A DNA stretch of 64,000 nucleotides from Chloropicon primus (GCA_023205875.1 CP060773.1:248001-312000); one strand, 5' to 3'. Shown: positions 7,155 through 64,000, counted from the stretch's first letter. Program-made: numbers and translations. Notes: generated by a model from the sequence alone, not told the origin.

Positions 7155-7263
7155 ATACTTTGGGGAGAGACGGGAGAGTTTGTCAATTTTTGACTCTTCG
7201 GACACGGCATTCATTGGGAAACGAACTTGAAAGGGGCAAGGCAAGACAGTGAGGCGTCGAGGT

Positions 7264-21265: not shown

Positions 21266-22650
21266 CACCACCGTCGTCGTCGTCGTCGTCGTCGTTGAAG
21301 CTGAAGCGGCAGGAGACTCGTCGTTGGCGTCGTCGTCGTTCTCAACAACGCCTCGTGTTCTTCAATACCAAAGGGCTCCCCCTTCAACACAAGTGTTCAA
21401 TGAGAGGGGACCAGGACTCAAAACGGACCCAAGGGAGACGATGATGCCCTCGCTCAACTAGTGGAGCCTGGCCATCCTTTGCTCACACTTGGCCAAGCTC
21501 TGAGTGCCCTTCTCTTCCAAGACCGACGACGACCGACCCGACCGACCCGACCAGCAGAAAGAAGACGGAAGAAGAAGAAGGGAGGGGAGGTACAGAAAGA
21601 AAGAAACAAAGGGTGTCAGTGCCCGTGAACACAGCAAAGGGGTTCGTCCAACGAGTCAAGTACACGAGTCGTTCACATAATAACAGTGTGAAAGTCACAC
21701 ACGCACACACACGCAGTAGTATGACCAAAGACAACAAGAGAGACAGAGAGAGAATGAAGGAAGATGCCTCGCGCTTCACCGTGTCAACGCCTGGTAAACG
21801 CCCTCGTCCCAAAGGTCTCACCTTTGACTCCTCTCCTCTCGTGTGACACCTCAGCACTCTCCTTCCTCAAGACCTTGGTGAACCGAACCAAAGGAAGCTT
21901 TTCTCGGTGACAAAACAAGTCGAGAATCGTTTCAAACCAAAGGTGTCGAGACAAGCTTTCGTGTTCTCCCTCGCTTGCTCCACGTTTCCACCGTCTTCTC
22001 TCACTGCTGGCCGAGAAAAACGAGTCCTCCAACTAAAGTTAGTGCTCCCTTTGACTTTATCTTGTCCAACAAAGCTAACGACCACTTCGGGCGTCAAATC
22101 CGTCGACCAGACCATCCACGGAAAGCCTGTGACCTAAAGTTTCCAAAGATGTCGCCTTTCGTACCTCTCTCCCTCGTCCTCCGTCCTCAACTCGGTCCAG
22201 AAGACCGCAAGCTTTGGGCTTCGTCTCGTCTCACTCGTTTGACTCTTGATGAATTCCAGTAGAATTTCAAATAGAAAACATCAGAGGGGGAAGCGGAAGC
22301 GAAGCGAGGGAAACGCTTGGAGGAGGAGACGAGATTTGAGCAGGAAGGCGATGACGAAAGAGGGTGGACGAAACCATGACGAGATACGTCTCGAGATCTT
22401 TCCATCGGTACCTTGGTTGCCTCGTTTGGCGTCCGGAGTGATGTTTTGAAACGTTCGGAAGGGTCATCATCAACGTCATCCTCATCAGAGTGGTCCGTGA
22501 ACGATGAGGATTTGAAGGGGGTTAGCGTGGAAGAGGAGGTTGATAGGCTTCGTCAGCACGAATATCTCTCTCACGATCTTTCCATCGACCCCTCGCTGGA
22601 CCCTTTCGGCCTCGTGAGTGGTCGGGAAGTGGCTTGCAGGCCACATCGTG

Positions 22651-34702: not shown

Positions 34703-36867
34703 TTACACACTTTTTGGTTGACGCAAGTGCTTCAGGAGGACGTTGCGTGCCCCGTTCACATCCCGACCGCACTTGAAGCCACACTTCTGGCACTTGTACA
34801 CCTCTGCTCCACCCAGGTTGTCCTTGATGTGTCCGCACTTGCCACAGGTCTTGGAGGTGTACTCCTCCGTCACGATCGCCAGCTCACTGCCGTGCAAGAG
34901 CACCTTGGAAGCCAAGAACGTTCTGAACGCATAGTGCCTCAACGTCAAGAGCGTGCGAGCCGTCTTCTTCCTGATCACTCGGCGTCTCCCGTTGTTGTTC
35001 TTCTTCACCATGTCTTGGGACTTGAACTCCGGGAGGAGGATTGTGTCGAACCTCCTGCATAGATCGTTGGCTACCTTTTTGTGAAGCTCGTTCGTCAGAC
35101 CTCGAAGTTTCTCCATGCAGGCGTATTGCTGTCTCTTCAAGTCGCGGCGGTCGAGGTAAGGGAGCTTCACCTTTGGGTCTTTGCGCTCGGAAATGATCTC
35201 ATCAATCCTCCAGCAGAGGTTGAACAGCCTCGCGAAGCCTCGCTCGCCCGTGGCATACTCCCCGACGCCTTCTTGCGGCGAGTACGACGTCTGAAAGGTC
35301 CTGACTCCCGGATCCAGGGCGACAACCTTCCGCTTGTTCTCAGGCTTCAGGGGTGGCAGGCGATCCCATGGCGTCGCGATGGGAATGTGCATGTGGAACT
35401 GCCCAAGGCGATTTCTTGTGATCTTCACGGCACCCTCGATCTTGCCCCCGGGGATCTCCTCCGTCAAGTACAGGGGCCCGCCGGCCATCTTCTTCTTGAA
35501 CACCTCCAGCTTGGTCCACTTGCGTCGTTTCTTGTGCTTCGTATCATCCTTGTGCCTCGTGTTTGGCCTTTCGATCGTCTCCACGTTCTTTAACTCTCTT
35601 GCATCAATTTCAATAGTCCAAGAACTCGGTTGCTGACGTTGACGATACTTGAGAACGAAGCGGTGCCCCTTCTCCTCGCCGCGCTCCTTCATCGCTTCCT
35701 GCTTCGCGGTGTTCGAATCCCATGCCTTGATGAGACTTCGCACGGCAGCTTGTCTGATGGCACAGGGGGTATCCTTCAGCCAAGGATGCTTCTGATTTAC
35801 AAAGGCCCCGCTAACGTAGTCCCGGTCCTTGGCCACTTCGGCGCGAAATCGTCTGCCTCCAATTTGGCTCTCGAGTCTCTTCTCTCTGGCCGCGAAAAGC
35901 TCTGCCTCCTGTTTTGTCCATGGCCGTGGAGAGCATTGGATTTCTTTCAGCTCTTTCTCCAGCCCCTCAAAGACCTCAGGGCGTCGCGGTTTGGCCGTCA
36001 CAAATCTGTCCAGCAGGACGGTCCAAACCAGCGGAAAACCCTCCTTCTTGACCGCCTCCAAACACTTGTTGTATGTGAAACGCGCAGCTCCCATCCAGTT
36101 GCAAAGGCACTTCGCCTGCTCAGGGTTCAAGCGCATCCTAAGCTTCCTCGTCCGTATCACCGTTCGCTCCGGCAATAGCTTGGAGGTCTTCAGTTTCTGC
36201 CCCCTCTTCCTTTTGGCGGGCGACTGCAATGTCTCGACGGATACCACAGAATCTTCTGGAAGGTTCAAGCACGACCTCCATCCCGTCTTCGGACACTTTA
36301 CCTCTTCAAGTTCTCTCTTGATCGATGAGAACCAGGTCTTCTTCACGCTGTCGTCCGCCAAGCCACCCGGCTGCTTCCCTGCTTTCTTCCCCCTCTTGTT
36401 CTTCTTCTTCTTACCCTTCTTCTTGTTCTTCTTCTTGCCCTTCTTGCGAGGCTTCTTGCGAGGCTTGCCTGACGAGCTCGAACTCTCACCCGCAGAGGCG
36501 TCCGCCTCCGGCGGACGCCCCTTCCGCTTCCCCCCCCGCTTCTTGCGAGGCGTGCTCGAACCCTCCTCGAAAGCAGAGGCGGGGTCGTCCAGCGGCTTCC
36601 CTTCCGCTTCCCCCGCTTCTTGCGAGGCGTGCTCGAACCCTCACCCGCAGAGGCGGGGTCGTCCGCGATAGGAAGCAGGCACAACGCGTAGAGCCAGGCT
36701 AAACCCTGATTCCAGAACCGACGTAACGGCTCCGTCGTCGGAGACTCCTGCCCCGACTTCGAAGCGCCCTGAGCATGACTCTCGCCAGAGTGCGACCTCC
36801 TTGTGGAACTCGTCGAGCCACTCCCCTGCTTCTCCTTTTTCTTACGGCGCTTCCCTGATCGCGCCAT
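34703..36867 (-). CDS. Fanzor2 / IS607-type TnpB-like RNA-guided endonuclease; reading frame broken near 36600 (1-nt indel or intron 36644-36469)
   Basis: TnpB N-terminal segment RTRKLRMRLNPEQ...WMGAARFTYN, HPWLKDTP, RuvC-I VVALDPGVRTF, ILLPEF with VTEEYTSKTC, zinc ribbon CGKC..CQKC and RuvC-III RDVNGARN. The upstream ATG ORF (36867) is in another frame. Confidence 0.92.
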
Positions 36868-44452: not shown

Positions 44453-44676
44453 AGCTTGTCGTTATTTAAGCCCTTTCTTTGAATGGATGACCCATATCTC
44501 GTCTCTCTCACCTCTCTCTCTCTCTCTAATGATGATGCATCGACGACCCTCACCCTCACCCCTCTCCTCTTCTGTTGGACAGCAGCCGACGGATGCGGAT
44601 CCCATCGCAGGGCGGCAGGCGAGAAAGAATGGCATGTATATATACAAGTGAAAGGCGGGTTATATGAAAAACGGCA

Positions 44677-47203
44677 TCACAGCCTTGGGACCCACTCGTC
44701 CATCCAGTGGAGCCTCCTCAGCACCCAGTCCTGAAGCCCTCGAACATTCTGGTCCCACGTGGGTCCCCAGTACTTTATGGGAATGTACTTGTGGTTGGTG
44801 CTGACCTGACTGATGGGCCACACCCCAAAGTTCCTGCCCTGGGAGTTGCTCAAGAGCGCTCTGTAGCTTCGGATCGAAGCCACGACGTCAGAATCCTTCC
44901 ACACCGTCCTTCGGAGGTCCTCGTACCTTTGCGAGAGCCTGCGCACGAAGGCGGGATCCTGGAGGAGCCTGTAATACCAGTGAACCATCTGAGAGTACGA
45001 TTTCTGGTTGGGACCAATGTAAGTGAAGTCCCAGGGCTCCACGTAGTACCCGTTCCAGTAGGTAGCCTGCCCGAAGGCCAAGTTGTAGTCCCAGGCAGGG
45101 CCCGCAACCAGCTTGGAGTCCTTGTCCTTGTGCAGGTACACGGAGGAAATGTAACCGTCAAGGTTTTTGCTCACTTCAGTGTGCAAAAAATAGTCGATCC
45201 AAGAATCGACGTCAATGTACTTGGAGTACCCCTCCGGGCCGGCAAAGCCTGGGCCCCACAAGGCTTGTTGGAAGTCCGACAAGTAGTTGGAAATGAAGCG
45301 ATGCTGGGGTCCAGTGGGGATCTTGGGATAAACGTAAGACACCCTGGCTGGACCTTCGTCCAGAACCTTTTGCTTCTGGGGCTCACCGGTGTTGAGCATG
45401 CTGTCGTGAGAATTGCTGGAAAGCACCAGGAGGTAGCCGCCAGAGACGTCGGTCCGGTTCAAAGGATCCATCTTGCTAACGGCCACCCTGTTTGAGCCCC
45501 TTTTGATCTTTTCCTTCAGAAGATAGATTCCCTTGTAATGGTCGCCGTAGTCCACGTGGCTCTTGCCGTCCCCCTCCATCACGAACAATTCGATGAACTG
45601 CATTGCGGGGGCCCACCTCCCCAGGCCGCGAAACATGTCGAACGCCAACGCGTCTCTCATGAGAGACCTGTCCACGTACGGGGCACCGAGAACCCAGTCC
45701 TCCTCGGGGGGGAGCCCCAAGGGGGCAAGCTCGATGCCTTTTGCCAAGCAAGGAGAGGCAATACACACAAACACGCCAAACAAATCAAGAGAGTCAGGGG
45801 AAATGGTTCGCTTGGCACGCGCGGCTTTCCTGCGCGCAAAAGGCCACGGATTGGGGCTACTCACCGTTATGGTTCTGGTCCCAGAACTCAAAGCTGTACT
45901 GCTTCTTCGGATACCTCTGGCTGGACCGGCCTCGAAGCTCAATGCCGGCCTTGCCACTGTAGGCCGCTTCATCCCTCAGGGAGCAAATCAGGTTGTCCCT
46001 GTTTTTGACCGCGCTGGACACGACGTGATCGTCTGAAGAATCCCCAAACTCCGAGCACCCGCTGAGCCAAAGGTGGCTCGGCATCTTAGGGTCGTTCGGA
46101 ATTCCCCTCGCGGTCTTCACGATCGCCAGGGGGAGGTTGCTCTTGAAAGAGAACTCGCGGGTGCCCGGGGCGTCGCTCAGGAAAGGATTCCCGCCCTCCT
46201 CATGCCAGTGGGGTCCAAGGGGGCCGCGCGTGAGCCGTCCCTCGTTCGCGCCGCCGGGGGTCCCTTCTCTGAGGTAACTCAGCATCTGGACACCACCGCT
46301 CGCTCTGCTGCTGACTTCGAGCTTGGCCCCATCCAGAGGCCTTCCCAGGGTGAATCCCAACTCGTCCTCGTGCGGCGTCTCCCACCCGACCTTGTCCAGT
46401 CCAGCAGCAGCAGTCGCCCCGCCCTCCGGAGCTCCCTTCACGCGAAGCCTCATCTGCCCAGCGCGGTGCAAGTTGTGGAGAAGCTTGCACCCCGACAGCT
46501 CGCGGTCTGCGTTGGTCCCTGCCTCCTTCACGTAGTGCCTGAGCGTTGGCGTGCACCGGCCGCACGTCTTGGAGCAGTAGCCTCCCTCGACCATCCAACT
46601 CTCCTGACACTTGTTCCACTCCTTCTGCTTGCTGCAACTGATTGCACTGCTGCCCTTTGGGCGAACGTCCCTGCAAGCTCCTTGGCTCGCCTCGGGCCCC
46701 CGCGCACTGTCGTCGTTGAGGCGGTAGACGCGGTTGCGAAGCGACAGGAAGAGCTCGGGCTTCTTCGTCTCCCCGGCGACCACCAAGTACTGCTTGGGTT
46801 TCAGAACCCCGAGACTCTCGCAGCCTTCTTCGCCCTCGCCGATCAAGACCCTCCAGACCGCCCCGGCATCCGAGTCGTCCCTCAGCTCCACCACGAGGCC
46901 GCTCAAGTCAACTGCGCCGTCCCCGCGGTTCACCAGCTCGACCCAGTCCGGTCCGCCCGCTCGGTCGCTGTGCTGCACCTCGTTGATTTCCACGCCCCCG
47001 AACTGTCGCGGGTCCTCCGGGCTTGGAGGGGCAGACGACGTTGACTCTGGTTTCGTAACGTTCGTCAAGAAGGCGAGCAAATTCACGGATATGGCGTCCA
47101 CCGCGGCGTCCTCCGCACTCACCAGAGCTCCAAGCAGGAGCAGAAGGACCAAGAAGCACAGGCCGGGGACCGCCACGACGCGAAGACCTCGCGGTGTCGC
47201 CAT
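44677..47203 (-). CDS. Secreted CotH-family kinase with lamin-tail-like and small Cys-rich modules; exons 47203-45865, 45737-44677
   Basis: Signal peptide, INEV..DWVELVN, CSKQKEWNKC..W...GYCSKTCGRC, GIELRGRSSQRYPKKQY, DRSLMRD, YKGIYLLKEKI, NLDGY and GPAWDYNLAFG. Confidence 0.88.
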
Positions 47204-48144
47204 GCTGACACTCACGTCCAGGCAAGTCAACCGCCAAGAAGTAAAGCAAGCACGCAAACGACGACCGAGAAAGCAAGCGAACGTGATCAAGCGTCCGAAA
47301 AGCGGGAAGAAACCTCGAAGATGAGGAAACCGAACGATCAAAGACTCATTAAGTCCACATTGTCGACCCCGTCCGTCCTTAATGTCGCCCGCAAAGTCGC
47401 GATCTGCTTCGCCCTTCGCCTTCGCTCGTCTCGCATTTCGAGCGTTTCGCTCCTCCTCCTCTTCGTTCGCAAAAATAAAAATGTATCGCTAAATTTGCGT
47501 TTACTTGGAGCAGCGTCTCGTCATCCCATGGACAGGATTTTTGGAACTCCAGGGGGTGGCCCAAGATGGTGACAGAAGGCTTGGTGAGGTCGCCCCCCAG
47601 GGAGGAAGCGAGGTTGATGTCATCACAATAGTCATCTGCATCGACTTGTTTGTTCATCAAGACCTTTCCAGAGATACCTTCGACTCCAGGAACGCTTGAG
47701 ATTCAAGGTCATCGGGTCTCCGACGAGCAGATTGACTCTTCTATTCGAGCTCACAGAAGGCTTGGTGAGGGAGGAGGGGGTAGGTTGGCTGTCATCGCAG
47801 GGGTCTTTCGCATCCGGAAGCGTTCTGCGGACCTTGTTCCGAGTATACGTCCCGCTCACCGTCGAAAGCGACGCGAGGGTTGGGAGGAAGGGACGACCAA
47901 CTGGGTACTTGCTCCTGGTGGTGGAGGTGACAGCAACCGAGGAGCCTGCAAGCTGTGCCGACGGGAACCGCAGCCTCCTAGCACGTCGAGGGCGATTTCA
48001 GTGTGAGTCTCCCTTCCCTTCGATTGGCGCAGAGCCCACAGAATTCCTCGCCTTTCTGCTCAGAGCAGCTCCCTTGCTTGGACCAAGGTCACTGGGCTTG
48101 TGGGGCAGAAAGCCCGGCCACCCATTGTTTAGGCTTGGGTTGCT

Positions 48145-51100
48145 ATGGCGTCGCCCTCCGTCTCGAGGCAAGGGAGGACCACATTCACATCAAGAAAAGT
48201 TGTCGTGAACCCTTTGTGCGCTACCTTTGGCGTCGGCGCAGTGAATGAAGAGCGCGTCGGAGGGGGCTGCGAAGGTGAAGGGCAGCACCGTCTGCTGGTC
48301 GTGGAAGCGAGCGGAAGGGAGAGGGAAAGGAAAGCAGGGAGAAGGAAGGGCGGCCATTCCACCCGTTCGAGAAAGCAAACGACGAACCCGCTTGCACCCC
48401 CGGGATCGGAGAGGGAGAGGGGTGAGGGGCAGACGAAGGGAAGAAATGCAAGACTGCGAATGGTGCTCTCCATTGCTGCAGTGTTTTGTCTTTTCACAAC
48501 GAGCCTGGATGTCTTGGCTAAGGTTGGGGAGCTTTTTCTGCCCAGGCCGACGAATCAGCGTGGCGTCAATCATCTGGAACAAATCGTCTCGTTGGTGAGA
48601 ATGGAAAGCGCTGCGTATTCTGACTGCGTGGATCGACAGTTCTACGGCCCCGGCGGGTGTATCAGGAATCTGAATCGAACGGTAGCTGAAGATATCAAGC
48701 AATTCGAAAACGACATTGCTGGTTCGAGAGACGCCCTCTTCGAAGTGCAGAGGGTGCTGGATGACGAGGAGAGTGCCGTGGAAGACTTCAAGGCCCTCGT
48801 GATTTCCGTAGGATCGGAAGATTCAAAGGCAAAGGAGCGATTAGCCAACTGCTTCGACTACCCTGGCTTGAAGGGCAAAGAGGAGCAAGAAGTCGGTGGG
48901 GGCAAGGCTGGGATCCGAAGCGATGGCAAAGAAGAAGAAGTATTGCCTCCTTTTGCTGCAAAGGCTCTGCACGATTTGGAGGATGCCATGGCGGAAATAA
49001 GCAGAGAAATTTCTTTGAGAAACCAGTACGACCTCGCTTACATGAGAAACAAATCACAACACCTGCATACCATGGACCCTGGCGTGAGCTTGGGCAGCGG
49101 CGTATCCTTGCAAAGAGAATTTGAGGCCCTTGGTCTTGAGGTAGCGGAGATGATTACTTTCGATGCCTTGGAAATGGAAGAACATCTGGAGGATATCTGG
49201 ATGTTCATCCAGAACGCATCATTGCAGTACGACCAACTTCACGGGGAACTGAGTTACTACAAAGGGTTTAGTGAGAGTTTCTTCGTGAGGGTGGGGGACC
49301 TACTCGAAGATGTTAGCGGCTTCATCGGCACGATTAAGAAAGTCGTCAAGCCATTTAAAGGGATGATGCCGCAACTTGAATTTCCAGACGTGTCAATGGA
49401 TGTACCCACTGCGCACCCAATTCAAAGTCCTGCAAGCCTTTCACAATTGATCGACCTGCCAATGGCTGTAAATACATCTTTGCCCAAGAGAGTCTTGGCG
49501 TCAATAAGCGCCACGAAAATGAGCGCCTTGGGTATACTGCACGAGGCTCTCCATCTAATCAATGCCACTGTCGAAGTAAGTCTCGCTGCACTTGTGGAAG
49601 ACTATGACCCACCTGACATATCACTGGAAGCCCATAAGGACAAGCTTTTTGATGCAATGAAGGCGGCCTTCAGGGGCGCAGCTGACCTGAAGATAGAAAG
49701 TGAGGGTCTGACAAGCTTTACAGAGGGGCATTTTGATGAGATTGTAAACTCTCTGTCCTCTGATCATGTAGAGGACTTCTTCTCCTTCGACGCAAATTTT
49801 TCAGATGTTGAAAAAGGAGTGCATTTTCTTGTCAAGGTGTTGGTCACCATCGATCTCATCTACAGGGGTTTTGCAGCGCTCTGCATGCTTTGCAAATATT
49901 GGAGCAACTCGAGTATGGAACAGCCCCGGCTTGTGCTCAAGGTACGTTTTTTTAAGCAAAAATAGTTTTGCTGCTTGGAGAACTAACATTTCGTTGTGCA
50001 CGTTTGGGCCCAAGAAGAATACACATTCAAGCCGTTTACAAAAAGTATCTGATATTTTGATACGGCTTTCGACGCACGCCACCTTTTTTGCCTTTTGCCT
50101 TGCTTTTCTTGCAGTCGGATTCTGTTTGATCTACCTTCCTATGCTGAAGACTTATCACAATGGCTGTGTTTTGTCTTGCCGAGGGACATTGCTTTCTAGA
50201 AACATATTTTCGATGTCGATGAACCTAGCTGTAAGTGACGGTAAACGAGAGTCTCTTTCGGCGAGCAATGATTACAGAAGAAAGGTACGTCATGATAAAC
50301 TCTAAACCGACGGGCACAACCACAGAAAGTTGCGATAAACTAATCGAAAAATTGCTTTGCAGTTTGAGGAAGTCTGTCTTGCTCAAGTGACAGAGTTTAC
50401 AAAAGAACTGGAAAATTTAGCAATATACCACGAGACTTTGGAAAGCTTAGTTGATGAGGAAAAAACATTGAGTGGGACGCTGGAAGGGTGTCTCCGAGAC
50501 GCGATAGACTCTTTGGGCAACGATCATTTGAGGGGAAGGATATCCGCAAGTTACAATCAGTTCATTGAAAACCGTTTTGAAATGCAGGAGCTTGCTGATG
50601 ACATTTTGAGCGAATCAAAGCCTGTCAGAAAGCCCAGCCTCAACTGCTTAGATCTTAACAGCTGCAACATGACATGTGAAGGACCAAATCTAGAGGCAAT
50701 GCATTATAGAAGTCATCGGGCTTCTTGTGGAATGGAGTCCACTTTGCACGATATTATTGGAAAGGGTGTTGTAGTGATTTGTCTGTATTTCATCCTCAAT
50801 GCTGCACGATTGGTTTTCTTCAGTGGTCTAAGGAGTATATTTTGCGCTAAGCTTTCTGATGGCAATTACGAGGTAAGAGAGGTTTCCAGGAGTACAATAC
50901 TTTCATGTTTCTAACCAAGGACTTTTATGTGTTCATCAGTGCGTCCTCAATCTCAGCTCGAAAGCATTGCAAGGGGCTGAGCTTGGAATTTGGGGACGAA
51001 AAGATGAAGCTCTTGACAAATTGCGGAAAACGGGACACATAAAGTTGCGGGTAGCAATGGCAATTCACTTAGTTTGGATCGGTACTATCACTGCATCTTT

Positions 51101-51155
51101 CTTTCTAACAAGCTCGAACACAATCGACAATCATCAATTAAACAGTTCATTGTAA
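48145..51155 (+). CDS. Uncharacterised multi-pass membrane protein; about four exons (donors 49942, 50285, 50873); start uncertain (48145 or 48460)
   Basis: Four consecutive + strand ORFs are separated by GT..AG introns. TM helices flank large helical, Cys- and N-glycosylation-site-containing loops. Confidence 0.65.
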
Positions 51156-51170
51156 AAGTATCCAAGGATA

Positions 51171-54100
51171 TTAAAGTATAAGCTCAGTAAGCAAACTTCT
51201 TCTTCTAGAACAAGATGGGGCAGAGAGGGCAGCAATCTCTCCTGTTGTAGAGATCGTGATGCAAACATAGGAAGTGCCACTTGTGCATGTACACTCAAGT
51301 AGCATATTGCTTGCAACAGTGCTTGCGCACGAAGCACCAGATGTCCCTTGTATGCTTATAGATGCAGGCGCAGAGGTCTGTATCTTGTATCCACTTGAAC
51401 CAAAAAGCTTAATAGTATGCCCAATGCTACAAGATGATGAAGAGCTCTCACTAGAGGGCAACGTCACTAAATGGTTTGAATCCGATGACGTCACAGAAGC
51501 AAAAGTAACGCCATAACCAATACTCCCAGAACCAGAGCCTGTAAAAGTTGATGTAACTGATGCAGAGCTAACGGAAATGCCTCCACCAAAAGAAGCTACT
51601 CCAGAAACACTCAATCCACCATTCAACGACGCCAGCCCAATTAAACCCAAGGTACCAGCGATGGCAGTATTACCAGAGTCATCAGCCACGGTAAACTTGT
51701 CCGAGTCCATCGTCAAACCACCATTCAACACAGTGGCACCAGTAACAGTAGTGTCACCAGTAACACCCAAGGTACCAGCGATGGCAGTATTACCAGTGTT
51801 ATCAGCCACGGTAAACTTGTCCGAGTCCATCGTCAAACCACCATTCAACACAGTGGCACCAGTCGTTGTCAACGTACCAGCGATGGCAGTATTACCAGAG
51901 TCATCAGCCACGGTAAACTTGTCCGAGTCCATCGTCAAACCACCATTCAACACAGTGGCACCAGTAACAGTAGTGTCACCAGTAACACCCAAGGTACCAG
52001 CGATGGCAGTATTACCAGAGTCATCAGCCACGGTAAACTTGTCCGAGTCCATTGTCAAACCACCATTCAACACAGTGGCGCCAGTAACAGTAGTGTCACC
52101 AGTAACACCCAAGGTACCAGCGATGGCAGTATTACCAGTGTTATCAGCCACGGTAAACTTGTCCGAGTCCATCGTCAAACCACCATTCAACACAGTGGCG
52201 CCAGTAACAGTAGTGTCACCAGTAACACCCAAGGTACCAGCGATGGCAGTATTACCAGAGTCATCAGCCACGGTAAACTTGTCCGAGTCCATCGTCAAAC
52301 CACCATTCAACACAGTGGCGCCAGTAACAGTAGTGTCACCAGTAACACCCAAGGTACCAGCGATGGCAGTATTACCAGTGTTATCAGCCACGGTAAACTT
52401 GTCCGAGTCCATCGTCAAACCACCATTCAACACAGTGGCACCAGTAACAGTAGTGTCACCAGTAACACCCAAGGTACCAGCGATGGCAGTATTACCAGTG
52501 TTATCAGCCACGGTAAACTTGTCCGAGTCCATCGTCAAACCACCATTCAACACAGTGGCACCAGTAACAGTGATAGCACCAGTAACACCCAAGGTACCAG
52601 CGATGGCAGTATTACCAGAGCCATCAGCCACGGTAAACTTGTCCGAGTCCATCGTCAAACCACCATTCAACACAGTGGCGCCAGTAACAGTGGTGTCACC
52701 AGTAACACCCAAGGTACCAGCGATGGCAGTATTACCAGAGCCATCAGCCACGGTAAACTTGTCCGAGTCCATCGTCAAACCACCATTCAACACAGTGGCA
52801 CCAGTAACAGTAGTGTCACCAGTAACACCCAAGGTACCAGCGATGGCAGTATTACCAGTGTTATCAGCCACGGTAAACTTGTCCGAGTCCATCGTCAAAC
52901 CACCATTCAACACAGTGGCGCCAGTAACAGTAGTGTCACCAGTAACACCCAAGGTACCAGCGATGGCAGTATTACCAGTGTTATCAGCCACGGTAAACTT
53001 GTCCGAGTCCATCGTCAAACCACCATTCAACACAGTGGCACCAGTCGTTGTCAACGTACCAGCGATGGCAGTATTACCAGTGTTATCAGCCACGGTAAAC
53101 TTGTCCGAGTCCATCGTCAAACCACCATTCAACACAGTGGCACCAGTAACAGTAGTGTCACCAGTAACACCCAAGGTACCAGCGATGGCAGTATTACCAG
53201 AGCCATCAGCCACGGTAAACTTGTCCGAGTCCATCGTCAAACCACCATTCAACACAGTGGCACCAGTCATTGTCAACGTACCAGCGATGGCAGTATTACC
53301 AGTCTTATCAGCCACGGTAAACTTGTCCGAGTCCATCGTCAAACCACCATTCAACACAGTGGCACCAGTCGTTGTCAACGTACCAGCGATTGCAGTATTA
53401 CCAGAGCCATCAGCCACGGTAAACTTGTCCGAGTCCATTGTCAAACCACCATTCAACACAGTGGCGCCAGTAACAGTAGTGTCACCAGTAACACCCAAGG
53501 TACCAGCGATGGCAGTATTACCAGTGTTATCAGCCACGGTAAACTTGTCCGAGTCCATCGTCAAACCACCATTCAACACAGTGGCACCAGTAACAGTAGT
53601 GTCACCAGTAACACCCAAGGTACCAGCGATGGCAGTATTACCAGTGTTATCAGCCACGGTAAACTTGTCCGAGTCCATCGTCAAACCACCATTCAACACA
53701 GTGGCACCAGTAACAGTGATAGCACCAGTAACACCCAAGGTACCAGCGATGGCAGTATTACCAGAGCCATCAGCCACGGTAAACTTGTCCGAGTCCATTG
53801 TCAAACCACCATTCAACACAGTGGCGCCAGTAACAGTGGTGTCACCAGTAACACCCAAGGTACCAGCGATGGCAGTATTACCAGAGCCATCAGCCACGGT
53901 AAACTTGTCCGAGTCCATCGTCAAACCACCATTCAACACAGTGGCACCAGTAACAGTAGTGTCACCAGTAACACCCAAGGTACCAGCGATGGCAGTATTG
54001 CCAGTGTTATCAGCCACGGTAAACTTGTCCGAGTCCATCGTCAAACCACCATTCAACACAGTGGCACCAGTCGTTGTCAACGTACCAGCGATGGCAGTAT

Positions 54101-57100
54101 TACCAGAGCCATCAGCCACGGTAAACTTGTCCGAGTCCATCGTCAAACCACCATTCAACACAGTGGCGCCAGTAACAGTAGTGTCACCAGTAACACCCAA
54201 GGTACCAGCGATGGCAGTATTACCAGAGCCATCAGCCACGGTAAACTTGTCCGAGTCCATCGTCAAACCACCATTCAACACAGTGGCGCCCGTAACAGTA
54301 GTGTCACCAGTAACACCCAAGGTACCAGCGATGGCAGTATTACCAGAGTCATCAGCCACGGTAAACTTGTCCGAGTCCATCGTCAAACCACCATTCAACA
54401 CAGTGGCGCCAGTAACAGTAGTGTCACCAGTAACACCCAAGGTACCAGCGATGGCAGTATTACCAGTGTTATCAGCCACGGTAAACTTGTCCGAGTCCAT
54501 CGTCAAACCACCATTCAACACAGTGGCACCAGTAACAGTAGTGTCACCAGTAACACCCAAGGTACCAGCGATGGCAGTATTACCAGTGTTATCAGCCACG
54601 GTAAACTTGTCCGAGTCCATCGTCAAACCACCATTCAACACAGTGGCACCAGTAACAGTGATAGCACCAGTAACACCCAAGGTACCAGCGATGGCAGTAT
54701 TACCAGAGCCATCAGCCACGGTAAACTTGTCCGAGTCCATTGTCAAACCACCATTCAACACAGTGGCGCCAGTAACAGTGGTGTCACCAGTAACACCCAA
54801 GGTACCAGCGATGGCAGTATTACCAGAGCCATCAGCCACGGTAAACTTGTCCGAGTCCATCGTCAAACCACCATTCAACACAGTGGCACCAGTAACAGTA
54901 GTGTCACCAGTAACACCCAAGGTACCAGCGATGGCAGTATTGCCAGTGTTATCAGCCACGGTAAACTTGTCCGAGTCCATCGTCAAACCACCATTCAACA
55001 CAGTGGCACCAGTCGTTGTCAACGTACCAGCGATGGCAGTATTACCAGAGCCATCAGCCACGGTAAACTTGTCCGAGTCCATCGTCAAACCACCATTCAA
55101 CACAGTGGCGCCAGTAACAGTAGTGTCACCAGTAACACCCAAGGTACCAGCGATGGCAGTATTACCAGAGCCATCAGCCACGGTAAACTTGTCCGAGTCC
55201 ATCGTCAAACCACCATTCAACACAGTGGCGCCAGTAACAGTAGTGTCACCAGTAACACCCAAGGTACCAGCGATGGCAGTATTACCAGAGTCATCAGCCA
55301 CGGTAAACTTGTCCGAGTCCATTGTCAAACCACCATTCAACACAGTGGCGCCAGTAACAGTAGTGTCACCAGTAACACCCAAGGTACCAGCGATGGCAGT
55401 ATTACCAGTGTTATCAGCCACGGTAAACTTGTCCGAGTCCATCGTCAAACCACCATTCAACACAGTGGCACCAGTCGTTGTCAACGTACCAGCGATGGCA
55501 GTATTACCAGAGCCATCAGCCACGGTAAACTTGTCCGAGTCCATCGTCAAACCACCATTCAACACAGTGGCACCAGTAACAGTAGTGTCACCAGTAACAC
55601 CCAAGGTACCAGCGATTGCAGTATTACCAGAGTCATCAGCCACGGTAAACTTGTCCGAGTCCATCGTCAAACCACCATTCAACACAGTGGCACCAGTCAT
55701 TGTCAACGTACCAGCGATGGCAGTATTACCAGTGTTATCAGCCACGGTAAACTTGTCCGAGTCCATCGTCAAACCACCATTCAACACAGTGGCACCAGTC
55801 GTTGTCAACGTACCAGCGATGGCAGTATTACCAGAGCCATCAGCCACGGTAAACTTGTCCGAGTCCATCGTCAAACCACCATTCAACACAGTGGCACCAG
55901 TAACAGTAGTGTCACCAGTAACACCCAAGGTACCAGCGATGGCAGTATTACCAGTGTTATCAGCCACGGTAAACTTGTCCGAGTCCATTGTCAAACCACC
56001 ATTCAACACAGTGGCACCAGTCGTTGTCAACGTACCAGCGATGGCAGTATTACCAGAGCCATCAGCCACGGTAAACTTGTCCGAGTCCATCGTCAAACCA
56101 CCATTCAACACAGTGGCACCAGTAACAGTAGTGTCACCAGTAACACCCAAGGTACCAGCGATGGCAGTATTACCAGAGCCATCAGCCACGGTAAACTTGT
56201 CCGAGTCCATCGTCAAACCACCATTCAACACAGTGGCACCAGTCATTGTCAACGTACCAGCGATGGCAGTATTACCAGAGCCATCAGCCACGGTAAACTT
56301 GTCCGAGTCCATCGTCAAACCACCATTCAACACAGTGGCGCCAGTAACAGTAGTGTCACCAGTAACACCCAAGGTACCAGCGATGGCAGTATTACCAGTG
56401 TTATCAGCCACGGTAAACTTGTCCGAGTCCATCGTCAAACCACCATTCAACACAGTGGCACCAGTCGTTGTCAACGTACCAGCGATGGCAGTATTACCAG
56501 AGCCATCAGCCACGGTAAACTTGTCCGAGTCCATCGTCAAACCACCATTCAACACAGTGGCGCCAGTAACAGTAGTGTCACCAGTAACACCCAAGGTACC
56601 AGCGATGGCAGTATTACCAGAGTCATCAGCCACGGTAAACTTGTCCGAGTCCATTGTCAAACCACCATTCAACACAGTGGCGCCAGTAACAGTAGTGTCA
56701 CCAGTAACACCCAAGGTACCAGCGATGGCAGTATTACCAGTGTTATCAGCCACGGTAAACTTGTCCGAGTCCATCGTCAAACCACCATTCAACACAGTGG
56801 CACCAGTAACAGTAGTGTCACCAGTAACACCCAAGGTACCAGCGATGGCAGTATTACCAGAGTCATCAGCCACGGTAAACTTGTCCGAGTCCATTGTCAA
56901 ACCACCATTCAACACAGTGGCGCCAGTAACAGTAGTGTCACCAGTAACACCCAAGGTACCAGCGATGGCAGTATTACCAGTGTTATCAGCCACGGTAAAC
57001 TTGTCCGAGTCCATCGTCAAACCACCATTCAACACAGTGGCACCAGTCGTTGTCAACGTACCAGCGATGGCAGTATTACCAGAGCCATCAGCCACGGTAA

Positions 57101-60100
57101 ACTTGTCCGAGTCCATCGTCAAACCACCATTCAACACAGTGGCGCCAGTAACAGTAGTGTCACCAGTAACACCCAAGGTACCAGCGATGGCAGTATTACC
57201 AGTGTTATCAGCCACGGTAAACTTGTCCGAGTCCATCGTCAAACCACCATTCAACACAGTGGCACCAGTCGTTGTCAACGTACCAGCGATGGCAGTATTA
57301 CCAGAGCCATCAGCCACGGTAAACTTGTCCGAGTCCATCGTCAAACCACCATTCAACACAGTGGCGCCAGTAACAGTAGTGTCACCAGTAACACCCAAGG
57401 TACCAGCGATGGCAGTATTACCAGAGCCATCAGCCACGGTAAACTTGTCCGAGTCCATCGTCAAACCACCATTCAACACAGTGGCGCCAGTAACAGTAGT
57501 GTCACCAGTAACACCCAAGGTACCAGCGATGGCAGTATTACCAGTGTTATCAGCCACGGTAAACTTGTCCGAGTCCATCGTCAAACCACCATTCAACACA
57601 GTGGCACCAGTAACAGTGATAGCACCAGTAACACCCAAGGTACCAGCGATGGCAGTATTACCAGAGTCGTCAGCCACGGTAAACTTGTCCGAGTCCATTG
57701 TCAAACCACCATTCAACACAGTGGCGCCAGTAACAGTAGTGTCACCAGTAACACCCAAGGTACCAGCGATGGCAGTATTACCAGAGTCGTCAGCCACGGT
57801 AAACTTGTCCGAGTCCATCGTCAAACCACCATTCAACACAGTGGCGCCAGTAACAGTAGTGTCACCAGTAACACCCAAGGTACCAGCGATGGCAGTATTA
57901 CCAGAGTCATCAGCCACGGTAAACTTGTCCGAGTCCATTGTCAAACCACCATTCAACACAGTGGCGCCAGTAACAGTGGTGTCACCAGTAACACCCAAGG
58001 TACCAGCGATGGCAGTATTACCAGAGTCGTCAGCCACGGTAAACTTGTCCGAGTCCATCGTCAAACCACCATTCAACACAGTGGCGCCAGTAACAGTAGT
58101 GTCACCAGTAACACCCAAGGTACCAGCGATGGCAGTATTACCAGTGTTATCAGCCACGGTAAACTTGTCCGAGTCCATCGTCAAACCACCATTCAACACA
58201 GTGGCACCAGTAACAGTAGTGTCACCAGTAACACCCAAGGTACCAGCGATGGCAGTATTACCAGAGTCATCAGCCACGGTAAACTTGTCCGAGTCCATCG
58301 TCAAACCACCATTCAACACAGTGGCGCCAGTAACAGTAGTGTCACCAGTAACACCCAAGGTACCAGCGATGGCAGTATTGCCAGTGTTATCAGCCACGGT
58401 AAACTTGTCCGAGTCCATCGTCAAACCACCATTCAACACAGTGGCACCAGTCGTTGTCAACGTACCAGCGATGGCAGTATTACCAGTGTTATCAGCCACG
58501 GTAAACTTGTCCGAGTCCATCGTCAAACCACCATTCAACACAGTGGCACCAGTAACAGTAGTGTCACCAGTAACACCCAAGGTACCAGCGATGGCAGTAT
58601 TACCAGAGCCATCAGCCACGGTAAACTTGTCCGAGTCCATCGTCAAACCACCATTCAACACAGTGGCACCAGTCATTGTCAACGTACCAGCGATGGCAGT
58701 ATTACCAGTCTTATCAGCCACGGTAAACTTGTCCGAGTCCATCGTCAAACCACCATTCAACACAGTGGCACCAGTCGTTGTCAACGTACCAGCGATTGCA
58801 GTATTACCAGAGCCATCAGCCACGGTAAACTTGTCCGAGTCCATTGTCAAACCACCATTCAACACAGTGGCGCCAGTAACAGTAGTGTCACCAGTAACAC
58901 CCAAGGTACCAGCGATGGCAGTATTACCAGTGTTATCAGCCACGGTAAACTTGTCCGAGTCCATCGTCAAACCACCATTCAACACAGTGGCACCAGTAAC
59001 AGTAGTGTCACCAGTAACACCCAAGGTACCAGCGATGGCAGTATTACCAGTGTTATCAGCCACGGTAAACTTGTCCGAGTCCATCGTCAAACCACCATTC
59101 AACACAGTGGCACCAGTAACAGTGATAGCACCAGTAACACCCAAGGTACCAGCGATGGCAGTATTACCAGAGCCATCAGCCACGGTAAACTTGTCCGAGT
59201 CCATCGTCAAACCGCTATTCAACACAGTGGCGCCAGTAACAGTGGTGTCACCAGTAACACCCAAGGTACCAGCGATGGCAGTATTACCAGAGCCATCAGC
59301 CACGGTAAACTTGTCCGAGTCCATCGTCAAACCACCATTCAACACAGTGGCACCAGTAACAGTAGTGTCACCAGTAACACCCAAGGTACCAGCGATGGCA
59401 GTATTACCAGAGCCATCAGCCACGGTAAACTTGTCCGAGTCCATCGTCAAACCACCATTCAACACAGTGGCACCAGTCGTTGTCAACGTACCAGCGATGG
59501 CAGTATTACCAGAGCCATCAGCCACGGTAAACTTGTCCGAGTCCATCGTCAAACCACCATTCAACACAGTGGCGCCAGTAACAGTAGTGTCACCAGTAAC
59601 ACCCAAGGTACCAGCGATGGCAGTATTACCAGAGTCATCAGCCACGGTAAACTTGTCCGAGTCCATCGTCAAACCACCATTCAACACAGTGGCGCCAGTA
59701 ACAGTAGTGTCACCAGTAACACCCAAGGTACCAGCGATGGCAGTATTACCAGAGTCATCAGCCACGGTAAACTTGTCCGAGTCCATCGTCAAACCACCAT
59801 TCAACACAGTGGCGCCAGTAACAGTAGTGTCACCAGTAACACCCAAGGTACCAGCGATGGCAGTATTACCAGTGTTATCAGCCACGGTAAACTTGTCCGA
59901 GTCCATCGTCAAACCACCATTCAACACAGTGGCACCAGTCGTTGTCAACGTACCAGCGATGGCAGTATTACCAGAGCCATCAGCCACGGTAAACTTGTCC
60001 GAGTCCATCGTCAAACCACCATTCAACACAGTGGCACCAGTAACAGTAGTGTCACCAGTAACACCCAAGGTACCAGCGATGGCAGTATTACCAGAGTCAT

Positions 60101-63100
60101 CAGCCACGGTAAACTTGTCCGAGTCCATCGTCAAACCACCATTCAACACAGTGGCACCAGTCATTGTCAACGTACCAGCGATGGCAGTATTACCAGTGTT
60201 ATCAGCCACGGTAAACTTGTCCGAGTCCATCGTCAAACCACCATTCAACACAGTGGCACCAGTCGTTGTCAACGTACCAGCGATGGCAGTATTACCAGAG
60301 CCATCAGCCACGGTAAACTTGTCCGAGTCCATCGTCAAACCACCATTCAACACAGTGGCGCCAGTAACAGTAGTGTCACCAGTAACACCCAAGGTACCAG
60401 CGATGGCAGTATTACCAGTGTTATCAGCCACGGTAAACTTGTCCGAGTCCATCGTCAAACCACCATTCAACACAGTGGCACCAGTCGTTGTCAACGTACC
60501 AGCGATGGCAGTATTACCAGAGCCATCAGCCACGGTAAACTTGTCCGAGTCCATCGTCAAACCACCATTCAACACAGTGGCACCAGTAACAGTAGTGTCA
60601 CCAGTAACACCCAAGGTACCAGCGATGGCAGTATTACCAGAGCCATCAGCCACGGTAAACTTGTCCGAGTCCATCGTCAAACCACCATTCAACACAGTGG
60701 CGCCAGTAACAGTAGTGTCACCAGTAACACCCAAGGTACCAGCGATGGCAGTATTACCAGAGCCATCAGCCACGGTAAACTTGTCCGAGTCCATCGTCAA
60801 ACCACCATTCAACACAGTGGCACCAGTAACAGTAGTGTCACCACACCCAAGGTACCAGCGATGGCAGTATTACCAGTGTTATCAGCCACGGTAAACTTGT
60901 CCGAGTCCATCGTCAAACCACCATTCAACACAGTGGCACCAGTCGTTGTCAACGTACCAGCGATGGCAGTATTACCAGAGCCATCAGCCACGGTAAACTT
61001 GTCCGAGTCCATCGTCAAACCACCATTCAACACAGTGGCGCCAGTAACAGTAGTGTCACCAGTAACACCCAAGGTACCAGCGATGGCAGTATTACCAGAG
61101 CCATCAGCCACGGTAAACTTGTCCGAGTCCATCGTCAAACCACCATTCAACACAGTGGCGCCAGTAACAGTAGTGTCACCAGTAACACCCAAGGTACCAG
61201 CGATGGCAGTATTACCAGAGTCATCAGCCACGGTAAACTTGTCCGAGTCCATCGTCAAACCACCATTCAACACAGTGGCGCCAGTAACAGTAGTGTCACC
61301 AGTAACACCCAAGGTACCAGCGATGGCAGTATTACCAGAGTCATCAGCCACGGTAAACTTGTCCGAGTCCATCGTCAAACCACCATTCAACACAGTGGCA
61401 CCAGTAACAGTAGTGTCACCAGTAACACCCAAGGTACCAGCGATGGCAGTATTACCAGAGTTATCAGCCACGGTAAACTTGTCCGAGTCCATCGTCAAAC
61501 CACCATTCAACACAGTGGCACCAGTCGTTGTCAACGTACCAGCGATGGCAGTATTACCAGAGCCATCAGCCACGGTAAACTTGTCCGAGTCCATCGTCAA
61601 ACCACCATTCAACACAGTGGCACCAGTAACAGTAGTGTCACCAGTAACACCCAAGGTACCAGCGATGGCAGTATTACCAGAGCCATCAGCCACGGTAAAC
61701 TTGTCCGAGTCCATCGTCAAACCACCATTCAACACAGTGGCACCAGTAACAGTAGTGTCACCACGTACCAGCGATGGCAGTATTACCAGTGTTATCAGCC
61801 ACGGTAAACTTGTCCGAGTCCATCGTCAAACCACCATTCAACACAGTGGCACCAGTCGTTGTCAACGTACCAGCGATGGCAGTATTACCAGAGCCATCAG
61901 CCACGGTAAACTTGTCCGAGTCCATCGTCAAACCACCATTCAACACAGTGGCGCCAGTAACAGTAGTGTCACCAGTAACACCCAAGGTACCAGCGATGGC
62001 AGTATTACCAGAGCCATCAGCCACGGTAAACTTGTCCGAGTCCATCGTCAAACCACCATTCAACACAGTGGCACCAGTAACAGTAGTGTCACCAGTAACA
62101 CCCAAGGTACCAGCGATGGCAGTATTACCAGAGTCATCAGCCACGGTAAACTTGTCCGAGTCCATCGTCAAACCACCATTCAACACAGTGGCGCCAGTAA
62201 CAGTAGTGTCACCAGTAACACCCAAGGTACCAGCGATGGCAGTATTACCAGTGTTATCAGCCACGGTAAACTTGTCCGAGTCCATCGTCAAACCACCATT
62301 CAACACAGTGGCACCAGTCGTTGTCAACGTACCAGCGATGGCAGTATTACCAGAGCCATCAGCCACGGTAAACTTGTCCGAGTCCATCGTCAAACCACCA
62401 TTCAACACAGTGGCGCCAGTAACAGTAGTGTCACCAGTAACACCCAAGGTACCAGCGATGGCAGTATTACCAGAGTCATCAGCCACGGTAAACTTGTCCG
62501 AGTCCATCGTCAAACCACCATTCAACACAGTGGCACCAGTCGTTGTCAACGTACCAGCGATGGCAGTATTACCAGAGTCATCAGCCACGGTAAACTTGTC
62601 CGAGTCCATCGTCAAACCACCATTCAACACAGTGGCGCCAGTAACAGTAGTGTCACCAGTAACACCCAAGGTACCAGCGATGGCAGTATTACCAGAGTCA
62701 TCAGCCACGGTAAACTTGTCCGAGTCCATCGTCAAACCACCATTCAACACAGTGGCGCCAGTAACAGTAGTGTCACCAGTAACACCCAAGGTACCAGCGA
62801 TGGCAGTATTACCAGAGTTATCAGCCACGGTAAACTTGTCCGAGTCCATCGTCAAACCACCATTCAACACAGTGGCACCAGTAACAGTAGTGTCACCAGT
62901 AACACCCAAGGTACCAGCGATGGCAGTATTACCAGAGTCATCAGCCACGGTAAACTTGTCCGAGTCCATCGTCAAACCACCATTCAACACAGTGGCGCCA
63001 GTAACAGTAGTGTCACCAGTAACACCCAAGGTACCAGCGATGGCAGTATTACCAGAGTTATCAGCCACGGTAAACTTGTCCGAGTCCATCGTCAAACCAC

Positions 63101-64000
63101 CATTCAACACAGTGGCACCAGTCGTTGTCAACGTACCAGCGATGGCAGTATTACCAGAGCCATCAGCCACGGTAAACTTGTCCGAGTCCATCGTCAAACC
63201 ACCATTCAACACAGTGGCGCCAGTAACAGTAGTGTCACCAGTAACACCCAAGGTACCAGCGATGGCAGTATTACCAGAGTCATCAGCCACGGTAAACTTG
63301 TCCGAGTCCATCGTCAAACCACCATTCAACACAGTGGCACCAGTCAGTTGTCAACGTACCAGCGATGGCAGTATTACCAGAGTCATCAGCCACGGTAAAC
63401 TTGTCCGAGTCCATCGTCAAACCACCATTCAACACAGTGGCACCAGTAACGTTGTCAACGTACCAGCGATGGCAGTATTACCAGAGCCATCAGCCACGGT
63501 AAACTTGTCCGAGTCCATCGTCAAACCACCATTCAACACAGTGGCGCCAGTAACAGTAGTGTCACCAGTAACACCCAAGGTACCAGCGATGGCAGTATTA
63601 CCAGAGTCATCAGCCACGGTAAACTTGTCCGAGTCCATCGTCAAACCACCATTCAACACAGTGGCGCCAGTAACAGTAGTGTCACCAGTAACACCCAAGG
63701 TACCAGCGATGGCAGTATTACCAGAGTCATCAGCCACGGTAAACTTGTCCGAGTCCATCGTCAAACCACCATTCAACACAGTGGCGCCAGTAACAGTAGT
63801 GTCACCAGTAACACCCAAGGTACCAGCGATGGCAGTATTACCAGAGTCATCAGCCACGGTAAACTTGTCCGAGTCCATCGTCAAACCACCATTCAACACA
63901 GTGGCACCAGTCAGTTGTCAACGTACCAGCGATGGCAGTATTACCAGAGTCATCAGCCACGGTAAACTTGTCCGAGTCCATCGTCAAACCACCATTCAAC
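51171..64000 (-). CDS. Giant tandem-repeat protein (>4000 aa; 5' end lies beyond the window), with frame breaks near 60843, 61763, 63346, 63450 and 63913
   Basis: 3214-aa open frame plus upstream ORFs with the same repeat, TGATVLNGGLTMDSDKFTVAD(D/G/N)(S/T)GNTAIAGTL(GVTGDTTV|TT), and a unique ~160-aa Ser/Cys-rich C-terminus. Confidence 0.85.
51650..64000. repeat. Coding tandem array of mixed 120-bp and 102-bp units (roughly 105-110 units in the window)
   Basis: Near-invariant core gtaccagcgatggcagtattacca...tcagccacggtaaacttgtccgagtccatcgtcaaaccaccattcaacacagtggc, with two linker lengths. Confidence 0.98.

Follow-up and report, generated by a model that had tools for sequence, protein, structure and literature searches.

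A giant shaft-and-knob repeat protein of probable phage origin in the picoalga Chloropicon primus

Introduction

Giant triple-beta fibrils with a phage-related end are already known from protists, and a phage tailspike domain from the eukaryotic protein MYRF. The closest described system is the TLP-12 glycofibril (bioRxiv 10.1101/2025.09.30.679562), a giant protist repeat protein with a phage-related C-terminal folding domain, an arrangement that we also predict here. In the accessible text of that preprint, three chains twist together to a triangular beta-fibre with two short strands per 12 residues, a rise of 9.6 Å and a glycine at the corner; the repeat is a Gly-Ser-x-x-Ser dodecapeptide (Gly1, Ser2, Ser5), the end is of the ICA/S74 type and the candidates are alveolate. 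Glycosylation is demonstrated there, whereas for the protein described below it is only presumed. In MYRF, a phage tailspike-related module, the ICA domain, serves trimerisation (available part of PMC3742443).

On the phage side, the capsid spike gp52 of Pseudomonas phage Pa223 (PDB 9NY6; bioRxiv 10.1101/2025.06.11.659172, as far as its text was available) is a trimer composed of an attachment domain, a triple beta-helix and a knob. The XD1 fold is described from gp9 and gp10 of T4 and from TSP4 of CBA120 (residues 79-187), and also from CpaA and StcE; in the part of that source available (PMC8825819), these XD1 domains are internal and described as not docking trimeric partners.

Here we analysed a window of 64,000 nucleotides of Chloropicon primus (GCA_023205875.1, CP060773.1:248001-312000), the right end of which carries a giant repeat gene, represented by the protein P0001. 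It differs from TLP-12 by a unit of 40/34 aa with direct phage sequence homology, an XD1-type knob and a likely green-algal host, and from MYRF, a transcription factor of which the ICA domain is only a single, small, self-cleaving part, by comprising a whole fibre module expanded 100-fold. Pa223 gp52 is viral, not nuclear, has about 295 aa and 10% identity to the window protein, and bears long loops on a globular helix. Unlike the XD1 domains cited above, the window knob is terminal and bears added cysteines. Literature searches returned nothing that describes this gene family; the word "phage" is absent from the main text of two Chloropicon genome papers, the supplements of which may list the gene.

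Results

Organisation of the repeat array

The array lies on the minus strand, where 108 anchors marked off 107 complete units (51672 to 63942) plus an incomplete one at the edge of the window; by unit count and alignment the shaft covers 51672..64000 and is open at the right edge of the window. Seventy-four units measured 120 nt (40 aa), 28 measured 102 nt (34 aa) and five had odd lengths (103, 104, 103, 109 and 116 nt). Intact units were mutually 98.5-98.8% alike, with amino-acid variation mostly confined to one four-residue turn, which bears out the more than 100 near-identical 40/34-aa units described by the first-pass annotation. Six residues of the long unit are missing from the short one, and the long unit parses into five six-residue segments (glycine first, a hydrophobic residue at position 5) and one ten-residue segment. 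Only 12 amino acids build the repeat part, threonine accounting for 712 of its 3,047 residues. Cysteine and proline are absent from it, as had been noted, while the non-repetitive last 167 aa hold six cysteines and three prolines.

Every difference among intact units was in frame. The longest unbroken frame (51171..60815, minus strand; 3,214 aa) contains units 29-107 (57 long and 22 short), that is 79 units in a row without a stop, followed by the neck, the knob, the tail and the stop codon. The gene is real, is encoded on the minus strand and has its 5' end beyond the window. The earlier description as a giant repeat protein was thus right about the array, but the frame is broken five times within 60756..63942 (minus strand; units at 60756-60871, 61676-61784, 63273-63375, 63376-63479 and 63840-63942). 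All five frameshifts fall at the linker that distinguishes long from short units, and the affected units look like hybrids of both, which suggests that they are likely assembly consensus errors; they could also be real slips, and the protein would then be truncated. The window letters disagree with all four runs compared at 50656 and 50659, again likely through consensus errors of the assembly. A plus-strand ORF (51577-60894) was rejected as a gene, being the antisense shadow of the repeat.

RNA-like and DNA coverage

Coverage was examined in the contigs of four runs (X4, X5, X6 and X8) whose RNA nature is guessed, none being recorded as RNA. All four skip a canonical 127-nt intron in a neighbouring gene and leave intergenic DNA uncovered. 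The unique knob was covered without mismatch by X4 (51142-51674), X5 (51182-51448) and X8 (51301-51674), which come from two studies, supporting transcription of the 3' part of the gene; X6 covered the repeat unit only. In all four runs the repeat was present as a collapsed 150-nt contig, and contig coverage cannot reveal transcript length. A contig of X4 reaching 51142 and one of X3 reaching 50997 mark a likely 3' untranslated region (50997..51170, minus strand). An A>G difference at 51738 in RNA contigs was rejected as editing, since it is a collapsed repeat variant also found in DNA runs.

Summed depth on the repeat unit reached 1.06 million in DNA run X1 and 304,000 in DNA run X2, against 132 and 125 on unique sequence. 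Summed depth does not equal copy number, and with 31, the maximum overlap possible, as divisor there is only a rough floor of 80-260 unit copies, compatible with an array extending past the window or with paralogs. At a loose end at 51700, a contig of X1 runs on into a divergent version of the repeat, which hints that this genome carries a paralogous array at another site.

The C-terminal end and its predicted structure

The shaft is followed by a neck (51564..51671, minus strand), one degenerate unit that runs into the knob and has low model confidence, and by a knob of about 105 aa (51246..51563, minus strand; model residues 158-263), which differs from its phage homologs by a Ser-rich insert and extra cysteines. 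The motif RRRSLL, a candidate subtilase site, lies in a tail found only in eukaryote-type proteins (51189..51206, minus strand); the first-pass annotation had placed it at the very end of the protein, but five more residues precede the stop. Its claim that this end lacks a membrane anchor stood: the best 19-residue hydropathy in the scan was 1.47, in the last shaft strands, and the C-terminal end is not hydrophobic. A Pfam scan of the protein found neither a YadA anchor nor any credible family, and no S74/ICA match at E 0.01.

A monomer model of repeat units and C-terminus was built from a 138-row alignment that loses its register immediately ahead of the knob, where confidence drops; a model from a shallow 5-row alignment had a pLDDT of 36 and was discarded. 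The retained model had a pLDDT of 83 and a pTM of 0.58, with 89-98 for the knob and mostly 79-90 for the shaft. Searched against 48,161 chains, the knob gave five matches at Z of at least 8 (Z 8.6-9.7, rmsd 2.1-2.8 over 87-95 residues), all from trimeric phage appendages, including a tailspike domain (Z 9.7, rmsd 2.1, 87 aligned), the XD1 domain of TSP4 (79-187; Z 9.2, rmsd 2.7, 95 aligned) and the T4-like KP1 baseplate protein (Z 8.6, rmsd 2.6, 94 aligned). The Pa223 spike knob followed with Z 7.8 (rmsd 3.0, 94 aligned) and 6O38 with Z 6.9. In the PDB searched with Foldseek, the Pa223 capsid spike was the only match below E 0.001 (E 2e-4), and T4_gp9_10_N occurred in 11% of the members of the first knob match in the Atlas. 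The modelled knob is accordingly described as a beta-sandwich of the T4 gp9/TSP4 XD1 type.

The modelled shaft had no intra-chain strands, which fits a triple beta-helix, a fold whose hydrogen bonds are only inter-chain (available part of PMC5537660). Its similarity to solved triple beta-helix spikes was weak (Z about 3). The S74 domain, YadA anchors and collagen are trimeric modules, and they occur in the same chains as the repeat. On these indirect grounds the shaft is predicted, with high probability, to form a homotrimeric inter-chain triple beta-helix.

Phage and bacterial relatives of the shaft

The window protein matched PHROG 697, "structural protein", at E 1e-38. A pattern search of viral sequences confirmed 385 of 610 stretches, and 79 loci were kept; the viral locus L056 shares 82-87% identity with the window repeat over about two units. 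Context was scanned for 10 of 106 shaft loci, nine of which had terminase, portal, head, sheath or baseplate genes, and L056 none that could be named. S74 was found in the same polypeptide as the repeat in 12 of the 120 homologs listed, and the 42 scanned repeat homologs contained Phage_depo_C (3), the T7 fibre N-terminus (2), cement (1) and a gp53-like C-terminus (1). With the low-complexity filter on, tblastn against cultured phage records returned no match for a window fragment or for P0042, which with L171 represents the phage knob nearest to the algal one, and sequence searches of the PDB gave nothing below E 0.08. On these matches we consider the shaft repeat homologous to structural proteins of tailed phages.

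In cellular genomes the repeat is rare, with 47 loci in 185,579 prokaryotic genomes. Twenty-two bacterial repeat proteins were scanned: three end in a YadA anchor, one has a YadA head, and collagen, S74 and bactofilin matches were found in two each. Trimeric autotransporter adhesins are thus another related system; the window protein has no YadA anchor or head, and the bacterial repeat autotransporters have no knob. Three loci from bacterial MAGs (L257:5389-8664, L270:1268-4066 and L296:2712-4205) are trimeric autotransporters that use the phage-type shaft repeat. Four other proteins (P0013, P0015, P0017 and P0134) carry the shaft repeat with a Cys-pair insert; three were scanned and end in an S74 domain, and the four could be eukaryotic paralogs nearer to the TLP-12 design.

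The knob family

A profile built from five algal-type and four phage-type ends recovered 174 proteins, with the knob at the C-terminus in 115 of 116 non-algal rows. A search with a single knob sequence gave 250 representatives among 1.84 billion sequences; among the best 150 of these 250, the alignment runs through the tail in only four, each of them Cys-rich in type. Non-algal knobs mostly have 1-3 cysteines, and an RR-x-LL tail occurred in 0 of 116 non-algal rows. One protein, P0136, has five knob copies in tandem. A search with a phage-side alignment recovered 64 viral knob loci, and PHROGs had no family for the knob (0 of 9 rows).

Genomic context was read from 23 viral loci, namely 26 with long flanks minus two without an ORF and one duplicate. 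A major head gene lies at most three genes upstream of the knob gene in 17 of them, which suggests that the family consists mostly of capsid decoration proteins or head fibres. Among the other six, the knob gene follows a head-and-packaging gene in L107 and ejection proteins in L135, and four had no match. Shaft and knob occur together in five phage-type proteins, one of which, L171, follows a head-and-packaging gene; none of the 47 prokaryotic-genome shaft loci has the knob. The proposal of a phage-fibre-like shaft with a tip therefore held for the sequence homology of both parts and for the fold of the tip, but the context of the tip favours capsid (head) fibres over tail fibres.

Eukaryote-type relatives

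In five metagenome loci (L172, L187, L188, L197 and L207), orthologs lie tail to tail with CPSF100, in one case also beside a ubiquitin E2 gene; all five run off the contig at the 5' end. Among three orthologs beside CPSF100, dN/dS was 0.07-0.10, indicating purifying selection at the sequence level; between the window and the orthologs, synonymous sites are near saturation. The six cysteines are kept in 4 of 4 and 5 of 5 rows of two eukaryote-type alignments, and the tail is conserved as RR-S-[LM]-L. In three loci (L172:3-1766, L188:1-1377 and L197:3-1394) the last shaft units give way to some ten Ser-rich repeats of 12 residues, placed directly ahead of the knob; this stretch differs from the TLP-12 dodecapeptide, as does the 40/34-aa unit of the window.

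Eight eukaryote-type knobs, four of which are labelled by their cysteines and tail alone and not by gene context, formed one clade with SH-aLRT support of 99 (174 rows) and 98 (a quick mixture-model tree of 72 of the 174 rows). The clade sits inside a supported set with three (174 rows) or all (72 rows) of the five shaft-and-knob phage proteins, in unrooted trees of 120 columns with a compositional bias in which the algal rows are odd. We hold a phage origin of the gene to be highly probable, and one old capture followed by vertical descent in several species fits these trees best.

Composition and gene neighbourhood

The window has a GC content of about 55%, which, like the IS605-like gene described below, agrees with published accounts of Chloropicon genomes. 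At fourfold sites the repeat carries 62% T and 2% A. Its GC3 is 0.48 and that of the C-terminus 0.33, whereas 12 ORFs on the left side range from 0.65 to 0.84. The T/A-ending codons reported earlier are thus T-ending with a low GC3, but A is scarce, and two adjoining ORFs (48145-50914, plus strand), without a Pfam family, are shifted as well, GC3 dropping from 0.57 to 0.42 toward the fibre gene. No RNA contig lies over these ORFs, which carries no evidential weight. Codon bias was consequently rejected as a sign of recent transfer; because the neighbours are AT-shifted likewise, it adds little on origin. The horizontal acquisition first proposed from codon use is instead supported by the nesting of the eukaryote clade in phage sequences, as an old capture.

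The gene is not set among virion genes. Its neighbours in the window are eukaryotic, one of them spliced, and include by Pfam scan NadA-SufE, an ABCA transporter, tRNase Z, WD40 and RRM proteins; the same scan of 20 window ORFs found no other viral gene. Several neighbours deserve mention. The lamin-tail-domain and CotH kinase ORFs (44631-47418, minus strand) are one spliced gene, the 127-nt intron of which (45737-45863) is the one skipped by the RNA-like runs. NadA-SufE (56-2206, plus strand) lies 5 kb from a fumarate-reductase-type flavoprotein, likely L-aspartate oxidase (NadB; 7249-9237, plus strand), a possible clustering of two steps of NAD synthesis. An intact IS605/TnpB-like gene with HTH_OrfB_IS605 and Cas12f1-like TNB domains (34703-36361, minus strand), which we take to be Fanzor-like, is present in this eukaryotic genome. 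A Pro-rich extensin-like protein (19349-21271, minus strand) starts with a signal-like stretch and contains two RRLL motifs as well as a probable membrane segment.

Discussion

We propose, with a probability of about 0.55, that this nuclear gene stems from a single capture of a phage capsid fibre and encodes a predicted homotrimeric thread, a triple beta-helix, which the cell would likely export to its surface or wall. Three chains would first meet at the C-terminal knob, which would nucleate folding as the C-terminal domains of phage fibres do. The chains would then wind together, each Gly-cornered six-residue strand forming one rung, and the short unit would be the long one minus one rung. 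Taking 4.8 Å (0.48 nm) per strand from TLP-12 and six or five rungs per unit, the 57 long and 22 short units would give a thread of about 0.22 micrometres, and all 107 units one of about 0.29, values that are minima (0.2-0.3 micrometres or more). The host would have added six cysteines, likely forming disulfides, and the basic RR-S-L-L tail, a likely Golgi subtilase site; outward Thr and Ser may carry O-glycans, and the knob at the free end would likely bind a glycan or the cell surface. We found nothing in support of the suggested repeat-array binding protein. More speculatively, and with little confidence, the thread might be a sub-micron pilus whose knob keeps the phage affinity for bacterial glycan, the threads catching or holding bacteria or decoying viruses, with a length tuned by repeat number.

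The added cysteines and basic tail point to the secretory pathway, and the fibre is, on these sequence features, probably extracellular. In plant wall enzymes, dibasic motifs of the RRLL type are a sign of processing by subtilases (available part of PMC11494411), and RRLL occurs twice in the Pro-rich window protein with a signal-like start (19349-21271); cleavage at the motif of the fibre tail would remove little, only five residues being left to the stop. Against secretion stands the description of a smooth wall in Chloropicon, although Chloroparvula can have a fibrous one (PMC5656628, in the text available). An unlikely alternative is that the phage-derived trimeric fibre stays within the cell and serves there as a scaffold or tether, begun by a host cytosolic domain. 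It would agree with the total lack of N-glycosylation sequons in the 3,214 aa and with four proteins (P0002, P0004, P0005 and P0008, on 17 contigs) in which a basic N-terminus without signal peptide, the only one attached to a eukaryote-type member, is joined to 1-3 repeats and the knob. The SPRY likeness of that N-terminus is weak (score 0.78, a lead only), and the join may reflect a collapsed assembly or a missed intron, as the gene calls may ignore introns; moreover, the six conserved cysteines, compared with mostly 1-3 in non-algal knobs, and the basic motif shared with a secreted-type window protein argue for secretion.

The route of acquisition and the nature of the fold leave room for other readings. 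That an extracellular fibre reached the alga by way of a giant virus or bacterial adhesin, and not directly from a tailed phage, seems rather improbable to us. The repeat does occur at the 47 bacterial and archaeal genome loci, several of them coding for proteins that have a signal-like start or a YadA anchor; proteins of Marseillevirus, Mimiviridae and Pithovirus are among the matches of the viral fold search; and prasinoviruses carry phage-tail-like and S74 genes (PMC12906663, available part). But the knob is missing from all 47 loci, shaft and knob were found joined only in phage-type proteins, and wherever the context of a knob locus could be identified, it was a head module of a tailed phage. 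There may have been a short-lived intermediate between phage and alga. A single-chain beta-solenoid of bactofilin or adhesin type would fit the hexapeptide periodicity too, and the Bactofilin profile matches 2 of 22 bacterial repeat proteins and 1 of the 120 homologs listed; the confident monomer model without self-paired shaft strands, the trimeric appendages behind the top five knob matches and the trimer-only modules found with the repeat make it highly unlikely. We give hardly any credence to a decaying viral relic or to satellite DNA with a chance frame, despite the five frameshifts, the low-GC surroundings and the near-identical units, given the 79 consecutive units without a stop, the in-frame changes of intact units, the RNA-like cover of the 3' end, the purifying selection on orthologs beside CPSF100 and ubiquitin E2, and the lack of another viral gene among the 20 window ORFs in Pfam.

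Compared with TLP-12 and MYRF, what appears new at the sequence level is a whole phage shaft-and-knob module still recognisable in a nuclear gene. Transfers of structural genes from phages to eukaryotes are rarely traceable, and here both halves of the fibre still match uncultured phages, while the changes on the host side (cysteines, basic tail and 100-fold expansion) are visible in a gene that is conserved and transcribed. For phages, the knob analysis of viral contigs (L107-L170) defines an unannotated head-appendage family of small genes next to major capsid genes, and the unit itself offers a sequence-regular building block for protein nanofibres. For the alga, a secreted trimeric thread of phage descent would mean that giant triple beta-helix fibrils arose in protists by a second route, independent of that of the ICA-ended TLP-12 type, and it provides a candidate identity for the surface or wall fibrils of marine picoalgae.
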